Shown here piece after piece: positions 3,092-30,458 of a stretch of 32,000 nt of DNA. The stretch's first letter is position 1, and each line of letters opens with the position of its first letter. The translations under genes were made by a program, and so were the position numbers. The stretch is from Candidatus Saccharimonadota bacterium. Its GTDB lineage: Bacteria; Patescibacteriota; Saccharimonadia; Saccharimonadales; Saccharimonadaceae. The DNA lies in contig CP060232.1 in NCBI GenBank assembly GCA_023898645.1, positions 570,001 through 602,000 on the forward strand. Reading direction: 5' to 3'. A model generated the notes under the pieces. That model made no database searches, was not told the DNA's origin, and saw only the letters and a program-made list of their open reading frames with translations.

Positions 3092-3930
3092 TGGCAATTA
3101 AAGCATACAACCCAACTACTCCCGGCCGTCGCGGCATGACTACTCAAGATTTGAGTGACATCACTACTCGCGGCAAGGTCAAAAGCCTCGTTAAGAGCAA
3201 AAAGCAGAATGCCGGCCGTAATAACACCGGTCGCATCACTGTTCGCCATCGTGGTGGCGGCGTTAAACGCCACTACCGTTTGGTTAACCACAACCTTGCA
3301 GCTGGCCTAAAGGTTACTGTCGAGGAAATCGAATACGATCCAAACCGTAGCGCTCGTATTGCCCGTGTTAAAGATCAGCACGGTCTATACCACTACATCT
3401 TGGCCGACACTAGCATGACGAAGGGTAAAGTTATCGAAAGCGGTGCAAAAGCACCAATCGAAAGCAGCAACCGTCTACCACTAAGCGAAATTCCTGTAGG
3501 TAGTCAGATCTACGCGATCGAACTAACCCCAGGCAAGGGCGCTCAAATGGTACGTGCAGCTGGCGCTAAAGCTCAGCTAATGGCTAAAGAGGGCGACCAC
3601 GCCCAAATTCGCCTGCCATCAGGTGAAGTTCGCAGGGTTCGTCTAGAGGCAACCGCTGCAATCGGTGTTGTTGGTAACGTTCAGCATCAAAACATCAAGA
3701 TAGGATCAGCCGGACGTAATCGCCGCAAGGGCATCCGCCCAGGCGTCCGAGGTGTCGTTATGAACGCCGCAGATCACCCACACGGTGGTGGTGACGGTGG
3801 TCGTCATGGTACTGGTAAGGCTCCGCGAACACCATGGGGTCAATTGACACTTGGTTACCGCACTCGCCGACGCAAAGACGTTGCCGGTCTGATAGTTAAA
3901 TCACGCCATGAGGCGAAGAGGAAGAGGTAA
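3091..3930 (+). CDS. rplB: 50S ribosomal protein uL2
   Basis: The motifs GRNNTGRITVRHRGGG and MNAADHPHGGG. Confidence 0.98.
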   Translation: MAIKAYNPTTPGRRGMTTQDLSDITTRGKVKSLVKSKKQNAGRNNTGRITVRHRGGGVKRHYRLVNHNLAAGLKVTVEEIEYDPNRSARIARVKDQHGLYHYILADTSMTKGKVIESGAKAPIESSNRLPLSEIPVGSQIYAIELTPGKGAQMVRAAGAKAQLMAKEGDHAQIRLPSGEVRRVRLEATAAIGVVGNVQHQNIKIGSAGRNRRKGIRPGVRGVVMNAADHPHGGGDGGRHGTGKAPRTPWGQLTLGYRTRRRKDVAGLIVKSRHEAKRKR

Positions 3931-17804: not shown

Positions 17805-17827
17805 GCAGCCCATTCGGGCTGTTTTTG
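17805..17827 (+). terminator. Intrinsic terminator after rpsI
   Basis: GCAGCCC-attc-GGGCTG followed by TTTTT. Confidence 0.8.
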
Positions 17828-17852
17828 TATGCAGGACTTCATCGTTAAATTA

Positions 17853-17861
17853 TGCTACGAT
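17853..17861 (+). promoter_or_regulatory. Extended -10 TGcTACGAT, 6 nt before ATG 17868 (leaderless-type)
   Basis: Read from the sequence. No SD precedes ATG 17868. Confidence 0.4.
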
Positions 17862-17867
17862 GCATCT

Positions 17868-18134
17868 ATGAGCGAAAAAAATCCAGAAACACATTCCATA
17901 GAAAATCTACGAAAAGAAATAGATGACTGCGACGAGGCGATTCTCGCATACGTCAAACGGCGAACAGAAATTAGTCGTGAAATCGGTAAAATTCGTGCCG
18001 CAGATGGCGGACCAAGGATTGTTCCTGCTCGCGAAGCACAGATACACGAATACTATTCGTCACTAGGGCCAGAAGGAAGCGAACTTGTCGACATACTTCT
18101 ACGCCTAGGTAGGGGGCCGTCTTCGGACGCTTGA
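17868..18134 (+). CDS. Small AroQ-class chorismate mutase (88 aa)
   Basis: MSEKNPETHSIENLRKEIDDCDEAILAYVKRRTEISREIGKIRAA..GGPRIV.AREAQI fits the AroQ helix-1/2 pattern (LRxxIDxxDxxILxLVxxRxxxSxxIGxxK). The C-terminus is LLRLGRG. The ORF-track ATG 17829 lies inside the rpsI terminator tail. Confidence 0.8.
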   Translation: MSEKNPETHSIENLRKEIDDCDEAILAYVKRRTEISREIGKIRAADGGPRIVPAREAQIHEYYSSLGPEGSELVDILLRLGRGPSSDA

Positions 18135-18168
18135 ACACATCTGTAATCTATGTTTAAATAATAATGAT

Positions 18169-18246
18169 ATGAGCAAACTAATTATCTCCACACGAGCCTA
18201 TTGGTTTACCGACAGTCACTCTGGCGGTTTGTTCAATGTTTTGTAA
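18169..18246 (+). promoter_or_regulatory. Candidate 25-aa leader peptide ORF (MSKLIISTRAYWFTDSHSGGLFNVL) with a single Trp codon at 18202-18204
   Basis: Manual translation. The ORF spans hairpin 1 of the downstream switch. No SD is present. Confidence 0.3.
18208..18228 (+). promoter_or_regulatory. Hairpin 1 (segments 1:2) ACCGACAG-tcact-CTGGCGGT
   Basis: 7 of 8 positions pair. Its 3' arm is also complementary to 18266-18276. Confidence 0.5.
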
Positions 18247-18267
18247 CACATAAAAGATATCGATGAG

Positions 18268-18288
18268 ACCGCCAGAAGGCGGTTTTTT
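18268..18288 (+). terminator. Intrinsic terminator (segments 3:4) ACCGCC-agaa-GGCGGT-TTTTTT
   Basis: Perfect 6-bp GC-rich stem plus a T6 run, 33 nt before the next ORF. Confidence 0.75.
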
Positions 18289-18320
18289 AAATAATAAACG
18301 CTTAAGCCAAGGAGAGAAAT

Positions 18321-18608
18321 ATGACGAATCCCAACATACAATACGAACACTACAGAGACGCCTCTGACATGCGAAAAATCGAGTCAGCACTATCAAATAT
18401 TATTAACGCAGCGTACGCGGGAGCGATTAACGACAAACAAGCAATCGAAGTAATTCCATCCGCCAACCCAAAACCAGCCGACCCTGAGCATGAAGCAGCA
18501 CTTGCAATGGCAAAAAAGCGCATAGGTCACCTCACCGGTTCACTGCACAACGAGCTAGACGCTGAGCCCGAAAAGAGTAATGAACACAGCATAGATGAGC
18601 TGCAATAA
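18321..18608 (+). CDS. Hypothetical acidic protein, 95 aa
   Basis: AAGGAGA SD 6 nt upstream of the ATG. I recognise no family. Confidence 0.6.
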   Translation: MTNPNIQYEHYRDASDMRKIESALSNIINAAYAGAINDKQAIEVIPSANPKPADPEHEAALAMAKKRIGHLTGSLHNELDAEPEKSNEHSIDELQ

Positions 18609-18640
18609 TATACTCGCGGGCTATACCTCTTGGTTTAAGG

Positions 18641-18646
18641 TATAAT
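18641..18646 (+). promoter_or_regulatory. TATAAT box 9 nt before the trpS ATG (near-leaderless)
   Basis: Read from the sequence. No SD lies before ATG 18656. Confidence 0.4.
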
Positions 18647-18655
18647 GATTAAAGT

Positions 18656-19750
18656 ATGACAAAATCGGTTATTTTAACAGGCCTCCGTGCCAACAACAAC
18701 CTTACTATTGGTAACTACTTCGGCGCTATGTTGCCCATTATTGAAATGGCTAAGAGCCATGCCGGCGAATATCAAATAAACATGTTTATACCAGACCTCC
18801 ATAGCTTTACGACACCTATCAATCACGACGATTTGCAAAATCAAATCATCCACAACGCACGACTCTTTGCTGCCGCAGGCTTACCGCTTGATAGCAACGA
18901 CATTCTCATTTACCGTCAAAGCTACGTACCTGCGCATAGTGAACTGACGTGGATTTTGGATTGCTTTACCGGATTTGGCGAAATGAGACGAATGACCCAG
19001 TTCAAAGATAAATCGAGCCAGCTATCTCAAGACGCTACACTGTCAGCTAGCGAAGAGCATAGATACAAAACTCAAGGTGAGTATTCAAACAGCACTTCCG
19101 TTGGCCTCTTCAACTACCCCGTTCTCATGGCCTGCGACATCCTCCTTTATGGCGCCAAATACGTGCCTGTCGGCGACGATCAGACTCAGCATCTGGAATT
19201 TACCCGCGACATAGCAGGGCGCATGAACAATAAGTTCGGCGATCTGTTCGAGGTGCCGTACGAAGTCAGCAAACAGCATGAATTCTTTAACAAAGGCCAA
19301 GGGCTTCGCATCATGGACCTTGTAGATCCAACTAAAAAAATGAGTAAGTCTGACGACATCGGCAAGGGTGTCATATTTCTGACAGATGACCCAGAAGCCG
19401 CAGCCAAAAAGGTGATGTCTGCAACTACCGACGACAAAGCTAGCGTCAACTACAATCCGGTCGAGCAGCCCGGTATCAGCAACCTATTGCAAATCCTCGC
19501 TCTTCTACGTAGCAAGCCGCTCGACGAAGTGGAGTCTGAATTTAAAGGTCAATCTAGTTATGGTGATTTTAAACGAGTCGTTGCTGACGAAGTGTCACAA
19601 TTCCTGACAGCTTTTCAAACGAAGCTAGCCGATGTAGATGACGGCGCCATAGCCGCTGCATTTGAGCAATCCGAAAAAACTGCAAACGAACAGGCGAATG
19701 CAACGCTACTCCGCGTACAGCAAGCGGTCGGACTGCGACCAAGGAACTAA
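18656..19750 (+). CDS. trpS: Tryptophan--tRNA ligase
   Basis: Class I signature variant LTIGNYFG; the KMSKS motif (KKMSKSD); VGDDQTQHLEFTRDIA is typical of TrpRS. Confidence 0.93.
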   Translation: MTKSVILTGLRANNNLTIGNYFGAMLPIIEMAKSHAGEYQINMFIPDLHSFTTPINHDDLQNQIIHNARLFAAAGLPLDSNDILIYRQSYVPAHSELTWILDCFTGFGEMRRMTQFKDKSSQLSQDATLSASEEHRYKTQGEYSNSTSVGLFNYPVLMACDILLYGAKYVPVGDDQTQHLEFTRDIAGRMNNKFGDLFEVPYEVSKQHEFFNKGQGLRIMDLVDPTKKMSKSDDIGKGVIFLTDDPEAAAKKVMSATTDDKASVNYNPVEQPGISNLLQILALLRSKPLDEVESEFKGQSSYGDFKRVVADEVSQFLTAFQTKLADVDDGAIAAAFEQSEKTANEQANATLLRVQQAVGLRPRN

Positions 19751-22385: not shown

Positions 22386-22462
22386 GCCGCTTTAGCTCAG
22401 TTGGTTAGAGCAACTGTTTTGTAAACAGTAGGTCCTCGGTTCGAGTCCGAGAAGCGGCTCCA
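22386..22462 (+). tRNA. tRNA-Thr (anticodon TGT), CCA encoded
   Basis: Manual cloverleaf: acceptor GCCGCTT/AAGCGGC, D arm GCTC/GAGC, anticodon stem ACTGT/ACAGT with loop TTTGTAA, T arm CTCGG-TTCGAGT-CCGAG. Confidence 0.93.
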
Positions 22463-22626: not shown

Positions 22627-22711
22627 GCTGGAATCGTGTAGTGGCAATCACAGGAGACTGTAAATCTCCCGCCTTTCGGCTTCGTAGGTTCGAGTCCTAC
22701 TTCCAGCACCA
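22627..22711 (+). tRNA. tRNA-Tyr (anticodon GTA), long variable arm, CCA encoded
   Basis: Acceptor GCTGGAA/TTCCAGC, anticodon stem GGAGA/TCTCC with loop CTGTAAA, variable arm CGCCTTTCGGCTTC, T arm GTAGG-TTCGAGT-CCTAC. Confidence 0.93.
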
Positions 22712-23440: not shown

Positions 23441-23516
23441 GCCGCGATAGCTCAGTTGGTAGAGCGCATCCATGGTAAGGATGAGGTCTCGGGTTCAAAT
23501 CCCGATCGCGGCTCCA
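23441..23516 (+). tRNA. tRNA-Thr (anticodon GGT), CCA encoded
   Basis: Acceptor GCCGCGA/TCGCGGC, anticodon stem CATCC/GGATG with loop ATGGTAA, T arm CTCGG-GTTCAAAT-CCCGA. Confidence 0.93.
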
Positions 23517-30383: not shown

Positions 30384-30458
30384 AGGGGCATAGTACAACG
30401 GCTAGTATAGCGGTCTCCAAAACCGTAGATTGAGGTTCGATTCCTCATGCCCCTGCCA
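30384..30458 (+). tRNA. tRNA-Trp (anticodon CCA), CCA tail encoded
   Basis: Acceptor AGGGGCA/TGCCCCT, anticodon loop CTCCAAA, T arm GAGG-TTCGATT-CCTC, discriminator G followed by CCA. Confidence 0.93.

Follow-up and report, generated by a model that had tools for sequence, protein, structure and literature searches.

Classical attenuators, in which a leader peptide with cognate codons precedes a tRNA ligase gene, have been predicted for Streptomyces upstream of trpS and leuS, and pheST of the γ-proteobacteria is a known example (PMC1262725). The trpL/rnTrpL attenuator of S. meliloti is located on a leaderless transcript (PMC6614838), and leaderless small open reading frames (ORFs) encoding polycysteine make up the 'Cys ribulon' of mycobacteria (bioRxiv 10.1101/834739). 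No report of a cis-regulatory attenuator in Saccharibacteria or the candidate phyla radiation (CPR) was found in the searchable literature. Here, we describe a candidate of this kind in a stretch of 32,000 nucleotides (nt) of contig CP060232.1 from Candidatus Saccharimonadota bacterium (positions 570,001 to 602,000), which is referred to as the window. The element is located in the 186-nt spacer (18135-18320) between a chorismate mutase gene and a small ORF encoding 95 amino acids (aa; ORF95), which is followed by trpS. The original prediction had proposed a tryptophan-sensing attenuator at this position. We consider it very probable that the spacer element is indeed a ribosome-mediated (leader-peptide) transcription attenuator. 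This conclusion is based on its architecture, its conservation and covariation, its gene context, and its thermodynamic consistency.

All parts of the element are encoded on the forward strand. The leader ORF comprises 25 codons (18169-18246; ATG at 18169, TAA at 18244-46) and encodes MSKLIISTRAYWFTDSHSGGLFNVL*. Its sole UGG (18202-04) is the central codon of the triplet UAU-UGG-UUU (Tyr-Trp-Phe; 18199-18207), the putative sensor codons, and is invariant in the family described below. As proposed originally, this UGG is located 3 nt upstream of segment 1 (ACCGACAG, 18208-18215), the 5' arm of the 1:2 hairpin. Segment 1 pairs with CTGGCGGT (18221-28) at seven of eight positions; the internal A·G mismatch had not been mentioned in the original prediction. 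Segment 2 (18220-18230) is common to the 1:2 hairpin and the 2:3 antiterminator, where it forms 11 base pairs, including one G·U pair, with segment 3 (18266-18276). Segment 3 in turn is common to the antiterminator and the terminator. Segment 4 (GGCGGT) and the U-tract (together 18278-18288) form the intrinsic terminator with 18267-73, the stem being ACCGCC/GGCGGT (18268-73/18278-83) followed by Ts through 18288. Both the 2:3 and the 3:4 pairing were thus found exactly where they had been predicted. The 3:4 hairpin of the window is missing from the output of the consensus terminator scanner, apparently a tool artifact caused by a greedy extension of the stem by G·U and A·U pairs that consumes the T-run. 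Terminators were therefore identified with a custom script.

The region is more stable than shuffled sequences (z-scores of -2.5 and -3.2). Its minimum free energy (MFE) fold is the 2:3 antiterminator, lengthened by an inner helix (18233-18263; 18233-42 paired with 18254-63) that holds the leader stop codon in its loop. The free window RNA folds as antiterminator. The calculated energies are -7.5 kcal/mol for 1:2, -12.0 kcal/mol for 3:4, -24.6 kcal/mol for 2:3, and -19.5 kcal/mol for the combination of 1:2 and 3:4.

When metagenome contigs were searched for the core pattern TTGGTTTACCNNCANNNNNNNNGGCGGTTT, 63 loci were identified. The covariance model R1 recovered divergent copies that had been missed by the DNA pattern (L148-2, L130-2, L100-2, and L155), while L084B was retrieved by a relaxed regular expression and not by R1. 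The family comprises at least 64 distinct copies on Saccharibacteria-like contigs. ORF statistics refer to 64 distinct copies with enough flanking sequence, 61 of which extend beyond the terminator. The core motif is expected by chance 0.02 times per window, and the whole architecture occurs in more than 60 distinct related sequences; this arrangement is far beyond chance. One further locus, L141, matched the DNA pattern but had neither the leader ORF nor the terminator architecture and was treated as a chance match.

The contigs that encode the homologue of ORF95 (L081/L082) show the same synteny as the window. Here, the spacer (about 18195-18300) is ∼93% identical to that of the window, though the ORF95 protein is only 61% identical. 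L084 carries two paralogous copies, one upstream of chorismate mutase and one upstream of an operon consisting of an unknown gene, an M20 peptidase gene, and trpS. One copy each was found in L085, L087, L089, L156, L155, and the GTDB genome L003, where it is followed by a small gene, in some cases by an AstE/AspA-type gene, and then by trpS. Among the five Saccharibacteria loci of GTDB representatives identified via TrpS (61-67% identity), the element is present in L003 only; it was not found in L001, L002, L004, and L005, nor in L154. Of these, L002 represents the oral Nanosynbacter. The genes upstream of the elements are unrelated (a hydrolase gene, the S9 gene, and others). In four loci, two serial copies precede successive genes or sub-operons: L084 (229-350 and 703-845), L130 (1637-1738 and 2849-2950), L148 (998-1100 and 562-664, minus strand), and L100 (2259-2363 and 2680-2774). 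The second copy is richer in Trp and Tyr codons in three of these four loci (WW, YWYY..YW, and FWY..YLW); the second copy of L148 reads GYWF.

The mini-ORF and its Trp codon, originally noted for the window, are conserved throughout the family. An in-frame start codon is present in 64 of 64 copies (62 ATG, 2 GTG), 6-11 codons upstream of the invariant UGG, and the stop codon follows 14-16 codons downstream of UGG in all of them. The 24 nt preceding the aromatic triplet show 34% pairwise identity, which in our judgment is nearly what random sequences of this base composition would give; the frame is nevertheless always open. With the first base of UGG as reference, pairwise identity is 82% between positions -3 and +42. 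The codon preceding UGG, of which the search pattern fixed only the third base, specifies Tyr in 56 copies, Phe in seven, and Asp in one. Judged from this pattern of conservation, the leader ORF is real.

UGG is also kept in the five copies that were retrieved without a UGG-containing pattern. The corresponding leaders read ...GYWFNRT... (L148-2), ...KSWWAGT... with a tandem UGG-UGG (L130-2), ...LYWYYHLYWR... (L100-2), ...QYKNWRIR... (L155), and ...GFWYHRHNYLWR... (L084B; FWY). In L084B, L130-2, and L100-2, the frame across segments 1 and 2 is shifted, resulting in a different downstream peptide, while the RNA segments are retained. In L148-2 and L155, the peptide after the Trp codon is altered and the Trp codon is kept just upstream. 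Since the frame-shifted copies keep both their Trp codons and the RNA segments, it is the aromatic codons and the RNA that are conserved, not the peptide. The single Trp codon within the conserved [Y/F]-W-F triplet may indicate a response to aromatic amino acids in general. Such a response is possible because the family also precedes genes for DAHP synthase and chorismate mutase.

Alignment across relatives supports the 2:3 and 3:4 pairings by covariation, and one pair of the candidate 1:2 hairpin covaries strongly. A hairpin followed by a T-run is present in 61 of 61 copies with enough sequence, 80-105 nt past UGG, and its stem sequences vary. Base pairs were counted on the alignment of these 61 sequences (A2). 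For the 2:3 structure, 89.5% of all cells are paired, compared to 43-56% in slid controls, and 10 pairs changed on both sides. The outer helix is paired in 90% of the cells and the inner helix in 89%, with two-sided changes in seven of its 10 pairs. For the combination of 1:2 and 3:4, 87% of the cells are paired, compared to 31-49% in the slid controls. The observed values for the covariation score, the percentage of paired cells, and the number of cells changed on both sides were reached in none of 500 shuffles for either structure, and those of two count measures for 1:2 plus 3:4 in 16 and 23 of 500 shuffles.

Column 27 of the alignment (window 18221), which belongs to segment 2, covaries with both column 21 of segment 1 (window 18215) and column 102 of segment 3 (window 18275), as expected for mutually exclusive pairings. 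The pairs between columns 21 and 27 are GC in 33, CG in 25, AU in one, and GU in one sequence; those between columns 27 and 102 are CG in 29, GC in 20, and UA in one. Across segments 1, 2, and 3, the three-way states are therefore G/C/G, C/G/C, and A/U/A. Four pairs of the terminator stem likewise covary (columns 94-122, 95-121, 96-120, and 99-117). Where a C in segment 3 is replaced by U, a G·U pair with segment 2 is retained, and segment 4 compensates by a G-to-A change. L155 maintains the architecture with different segment sequences.

A candidate promoter overlaps the end of the chorismate mutase gene. We assigned a -35-like hexamer TTGAAC (18131-18136), which overlaps the chorismate mutase stop codon, and an extended -10-like element TGtTTAAAT (18151-18159), which ends 9 nt upstream of the leader ATG; the choice of these hexamers is tentative, with a spacer of 17 nt between TTGAAC and TTAAAT. 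TTGAAC is unchanged between the window and L081/L082 despite the divergence of the flanking coding sequences, and the whole block from the -35-like to the extended -10-like element is conserved in L081. In the family, the gap between the -10 box and the leader ATG is usually 6-9 nt, and the box is often accompanied by a TG extension and a TTG-type -35 region. A match to TATAAT at five or more of six positions, ending 5-10 nt upstream, was found for 68% of the leader ATGs, whereas the frequency for ATG trinucleotides of any kind in these loci was 3.8%. The lack of a Shine-Dalgarno (SD) sequence in front of the mini-ORF had already been noticed for the window, and an SD-like 4-mer precedes the leader ORF in only five of 63 copies, while 58 lack it. 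This absence can be explained by the position of the -10 box, which ends 6-9 nt before the ATG and implies a leaderless start. Most likely, the leader is translated from a leaderless or near-leaderless transcript. We also considered UCUCC (18185-89) as a pairing partner of the SD of ORF95, but this candidate was rejected: it is not enriched in the family, and the pairing energy is -2.8 kcal/mol compared to -3.3 kcal/mol for shuffled sequences.

The effect of a translating ribosome was modeled as a 28-nt mask with the chosen codon in the A site. In the window, a mask at UAU, UGG, or UUU covers segment 1 wholly or partly and leads to the antiterminator, whereas placing the mask at the stop codon melts the inner helix and leads to the 1:2 hairpin plus terminator. 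Mask folding thus behaves as expected from the idea that a stalled ribosome would free segment 2 to sequester segment 3. The stop mask resulted in the terminator in 57 of 61 family copies. With the Trp mask, the antiterminator was formed in 61 of 61 copies if the transcript ended before segment 4, and in 40 of 61 if the full-length RNA was folded. Mask folding is consistent with a kinetic switch but is not proof of it.

We propose the following mechanism, in which the transcription start site, the translation of the leader, the stalling, and the response to tRNA charging are predicted from the sequence. The promoter overlapping the end of the chorismate mutase gene would start a transcript at, or within ∼3 nt of, the leader AUG, and ribosomes would initiate on the 25-codon ORF as on a leaderless mRNA. 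With ample Trp-tRNA (and perhaps ample Tyr- and Phe-tRNA), the ribosome would reach the stop codon in the antiterminator loop and melt the inner helix. Segment 2 would then re-pair with segment 1 behind the ribosome and segment 3 with segment 4, so that RNA polymerase would terminate at the U-tract (18284-88). If charged tRNA is scarce, the ribosome would stall at UAU-UGG-UUU (18199-207) and cover segment 1. Segment 2 would then pair with segment 3 as soon as the latter is made, thereby blocking the terminator and allowing read-through into ORF95, trpS, and the genes beyond.

The genes located downstream of the family members fit a common theme. In ∼35 loci with enough sequence, the operon behind the element contains trpS, which in most cases follows the gene for a small protein (53-107 aa) of low conservation. 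DAHP synthase is encoded directly under the element as class I in six loci and as class II in three loci. CM_2 genes are also found in this position, including the chorismate mutase gene behind copy A of L084, as are a CM-PDT-ACT protein together with a class IV aminotransferase, amidohydrolases of the AstE/AspA and M20 types, an Asp/Glu racemase, a RelA/SpoT-like protein, DUF3182, and GNAT. Judged by their annotation, the downstream genes are an aromatic amino acid supply and charging set. DAHP synthase of class I or class II is the product of gene 1 in L104, L127, L130, L132, L147, and L151 as well as in L115 and L125, and of gene 3 in L131; L104 also encodes the CM-PDT-ACT protein and the class IV aminotransferase. 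These steps of aromatic biosynthesis are unexpected in such reduced genomes. The second gene after the element in L113, located between the gated small ORF and trpS, encodes a 365-aa protein with a RelA/SpoT domain (PF04607, E = 4e-15), which may link aromatic starvation to alarmone synthesis. In the window, the GGTATAATG -10 box in front of trpS indicates that the gene most directly gated by the attenuator would be ORF95, since trpS could be expressed from its own conserved promoter. The read-through toward ORF95 and trpS proposed in the original prediction would therefore still apply, with the addition that trpS would receive it on top of a basal promoter.

Several observations weigh against the attenuator reading. 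Most copies contain only one Trp codon, for which a lower sensitivity is expected than for tandem codons. Most of them were also retrieved with a pattern that fixes TTGGTTTACC..CA........GGCGGTTT, so that conservation at these bases is partly circular. With a median of -7.1 kcal/mol, the 1:2 hairpin is weak, and the same internal position is mismatched in each of the 61 aligned sequences; since the search pattern fixed all its other pairs, covariation was possible at one pair only. Moreover, the states G/C/G and C/G/C could mark a single ancient split between clades instead of many independent events; a further event is represented by A/U/A in L151. The free RNA prefers the antiterminator (-24.6 versus -19.5 kcal/mol), and therefore the untranslated default may be read-through, unlike the super-attenuation of E. 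coli. With the Trp mask, the terminator was still formed in the full-length MFE structure of 21-23 of 61 copies, and therefore the decision would have to be kinetic. Finally, trpS in the window carries its own conserved -10 box.

An alternative view is that the element is an independent small gene, that is, a promoter-to-terminator unit of ∼120 nt that produces a trans-acting small RNA (sRNA) and/or a functional 25-aa peptide, its adjacency to trpS being incidental or secondary. In favor of this view, a promoter and a terminator belong to the unit itself, most copies share a conserved C-terminal half of the peptide, and trans activity is documented for rnTrpL and peTrpL, which derive from an attenuator of S. 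meliloti (PMC6614838, PMC7298713). We nevertheless regard this view as unlikely, and it would in any case be compatible with the attenuator model. The element is always followed directly, and in the same orientation, by an SD-led aromatic amino acid or trpS operon, and the terminator of the element competes with a covarying antiterminator, which would be needless for a plain sRNA terminator. In addition, the peptide after Trp is lost in the frame-shifted copies, which retain the RNA segments. The same copies argue against an arrest peptide of the TnaC type, in which free tryptophan would be recognized by the nascent W-F-T-D... inside the exit tunnel, and the fold of the RNA would be determined by a ribosome stalled at the stop codon or close to it. 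TnaC consists of 24 aa with K-W12-F-N-I-D16, to which the 25-aa window peptide with Y-W12-F-T-D15 and the second copy of L148 with Y-W-F-N-R bear some resemblance. But TnaC ends in Pro, whereas the C-terminal residue of the leader peptides is variable (L, K, A, F, S, E, and others) and never Pro, and the distance between W and the stop codon varies from 14 to 16 codons. Furthermore, the terminator is intrinsic here, whereas the tna system uses Rho, and genes for supply and charging should be induced by shortage, not excess. Based on the variable C terminus, the variable spacing, and the frame-shifted copies, a TnaC-type arrest peptide was rejected as highly unlikely.

A riboregulator that acts independently of translation would account for the 82% conservation of nucleotides -3 to +42 from UGG without a role for the ORF. 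Here, the UGG/ACC-rich RNA would bind uncharged tRNA-Trp (like a mini T-box), a protein, or a metabolite and thereby choose between terminator and antiterminator. The T-box core is UGGNACC, and UGGUUUACCG is superficially similar to it. The original prediction had stated that T-box motifs are absent, and Rfam indeed gave no T-box match at the gathering threshold and neither a T-box nor a riboswitch match even at E ≤ 10. There is also no equivalent of Stem I, with only ∼30 nt of unconserved sequence 5' of UGG. A riboregulator would leave the conserved spacing of the start codon, the open frame, the -10 box in a position for a leaderless start, and the tandem UGG-UGG in L130-2 unexplained, and we give it very little credence. 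The simplest alternative would be a mere terminator of the chorismate mutase gene next to a promoter of the following gene, with the mini-ORF and the alternative pairings arising by chance. A terminator after a gene is ordinary, and the first-stage reading was based on a single sequence. This explanation is contradicted by the comparative data: the whole architecture was found more than 60 times and downstream of unrelated genes, with covariation and conservation of the ORF, and chance has next to no probability as an explanation.

Returning to the attenuator, a broader hypothesis can be put forward, which we regard as possible but rather doubtful. The leaderless Tyr-Trp-Phe leaders might constitute an aromatic amino acid 'ribulon' across a large clade of Saccharibacteria, which would sense the charging state of the three aromatic tRNAs simultaneously and coordinate trpS, both classes of DAHP synthase, chorismate mutase/prephenate dehydratase, amidohydrolases of the N-acyl-amino-acid type, and racemases. 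Such a system could serve as the sensor of an episymbiont for aromatics supplied by its host, and the variable small downstream proteins could be starvation-induced factors.

In the window, the order of genes is S4, RpoA, L17, L13, S9, CM_2 chorismate mutase, the 186-nt spacer, ORF95, trpS, an RluD-like gene, holB, and a gene for a TPR protein. Downstream of this operon, Rfam identified four tRNA genes (22386-22459, 22627-22708, 23441-23513, and 30384-30455). The CM_2 gene (17868-18134) lies directly 5' of the spacer. An intrinsic terminator, CAGCCC-ATTC-GGGCTG followed by T5 (17806-17826), is present 3' of the S9 gene and was not detected by the terminator scanner. Downstream of it, within the region 17806-17870, TGcTACGAT ends 6 nt upstream of the ATG at 17868; therefore, the chorismate mutase start is probably 17868, not 17829, and its mRNA may likewise be leaderless. 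In L001, L084, L085, L087, L089, L154, L155, and L156, the stretch from S9 to trpS is highly variable and contains varying mixes of genes for alpha/beta hydrolase, chorismate mutase, AstE/AspA, M20, and unknown proteins, while the downstream block of trpS, rluD, holB, and the TPR gene stays fixed.

ORF95 and its SD sequence (18309-18608, forward strand; SD AAGGAG at 18309-14, ORF at 18321-18608) represent the first gene gated by the predicted terminator. The public gene call (P0001) has 79 aa and begins at an internal Met; the 95-aa form is preceded by the strong SD sequence AAGGAG (18309-14) and has the same length as the homologue P0002 (95 aa). A Pfam search with ORF95 gave no match. Only one distinct homologous protein was found among 5.8 billion proteins searched, and homologues are syntenic in L081/L082 and L089. 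The AlphaFold model of ORF95 consists of two helices with low confidence (pLDDT 63, pTM 0.27) and is unfit for a fold search. The small proteins at this position differ extremely between lineages, and some of them are CM_2-like (L087, L144).

The trpS gene and its -10 box occupy 18641-19750 on the forward strand (TATAAT at 18641-46, 9 nt before the ATG; coding sequence 18656-19750). This TATAAT had been pointed out in the original prediction, and the GGTATAATG box is conserved in the window, L081, and L089. It ends 9-10 nt upstream of the ATG (window 18630-18658, L081 1555-1582, L089 about 3480-3503), and trpS has no SD sequence. This arrangement suggests that a separate promoter serves trpS and that its mRNA is leaderless. 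The product matches the Pfam family tRNA-synt_1b (E = 5e-53). It shows 61-67% identity to TrpS proteins of Saccharibacteria metagenome-assembled genomes (genome representatives) and 70-80% identity to many metagenomic proteins, a few of which carry the label Candidatus Saccharibacteria. By the identity of its TrpS, the window is Saccharibacteria-like.

Patescibacteria (CPR) have tiny genomes with few recognizable regulators, and the attenuator would be a regulator in an under-studied phylum. If the proposed mechanism is true, these episymbionts would monitor their aromatic amino acid supply by ribosome stalling, which would also mean that transcription and translation are coupled and that leaderless initiation has a regulatory role in these bacteria. 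Moreover, some environmental lineages appear to retain regulated entry steps of aromatic biosynthesis. A recent perspective noted that Patescibacteria lack an inducible expression system (PMC11665869). The native cassette of ∼160 nt, which is predicted to respond to Trp starvation, is a candidate for such a system.

A comparison with known systems places the element close to established attenuators in its logic and apart from them in its sequence. At the gathering threshold, Rfam gave no match at the spacer. At E ≤ 10 only sub-threshold matches were obtained, the top two being Phe_leader (RF01859; 18.4 bits, below the threshold of 55) and Trp_leader (RF00513; 17.3 bits, below the threshold of 41). 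With the enterobacterial trpL (RF00513), the element shares a short leader ORF whose Trp codon(s) directly precede segment 1 or lie inside it, four segments arranged for the pairings 2:3 and 3:4 and a candidate 1:2 pairing, and an intrinsic terminator before the structural genes, but no homology at the level of sequence or covariance model. The trpL leader has tandem Trp codons and is led by an SD sequence, whereas members of the window family usually have one Trp codon flanked by Tyr and Phe codons and a putatively leaderless start. The stop codon of trpL is located between segments 1 and 2, while here it lies inside the antiterminator loop. Unlike trpL, the free RNA favors the antiterminator. 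Finally, trpL controls trpEDCBA, whereas the genes found here are trpS and entry genes of the aromatic pathway.

The attenuators of Streptomyces trpS and leuS and of pheST are similar in that a leader peptide with cognate codons precedes a tRNA ligase gene. They differ in phylum and sequence family, and the element described here is also found in front of DAHP synthase and chorismate mutase operons and carries a mixed aromatic triplet. The S. meliloti rnTrpL is alike as a Trp attenuator on a leaderless transcript, which is the predicted situation here, but it belongs to the Alphaproteobacteria, controls trpE(G), and has documented trans roles of both RNA and peptide. The Cys ribulon likewise consists of leaderless sensory ORFs before several operons of one pathway and controls this regulon by stalling. 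It differs by unmasking a ribosome-binding site, thus acting on translation, and by runs of Cys codons, whereas an intrinsic terminator and one to two Trp codons are found here. The trpS T-box of Firmicutes serves the same goal, that is, more TrpRS when tRNA-Trp is uncharged, and also chooses between terminator and antiterminator. But it senses the tRNA directly and needs no ORF, while the element here has neither a match to the T-box model nor a Stem I. Protein-mediated trp attenuation of the TRAP type is characterized by 9-11 (G/U)AG repeats, spaced by 2-3 nt, which overlap the antiterminator. A repeat series was not evident on reading 18169-18290, for which neither a formal search nor a search for TRAP homologues was made. 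Read in this way, the mechanism predicted from the sequence is classical. The sequence family is new, as is its occurrence in this phylum as far as the literature was searched, and the element is distinguished by a putatively leaderless leader, the Tyr-Trp-Phe triplet, and the use in front of multiple operons. A known principle is thereby extended, and nothing is overturned.

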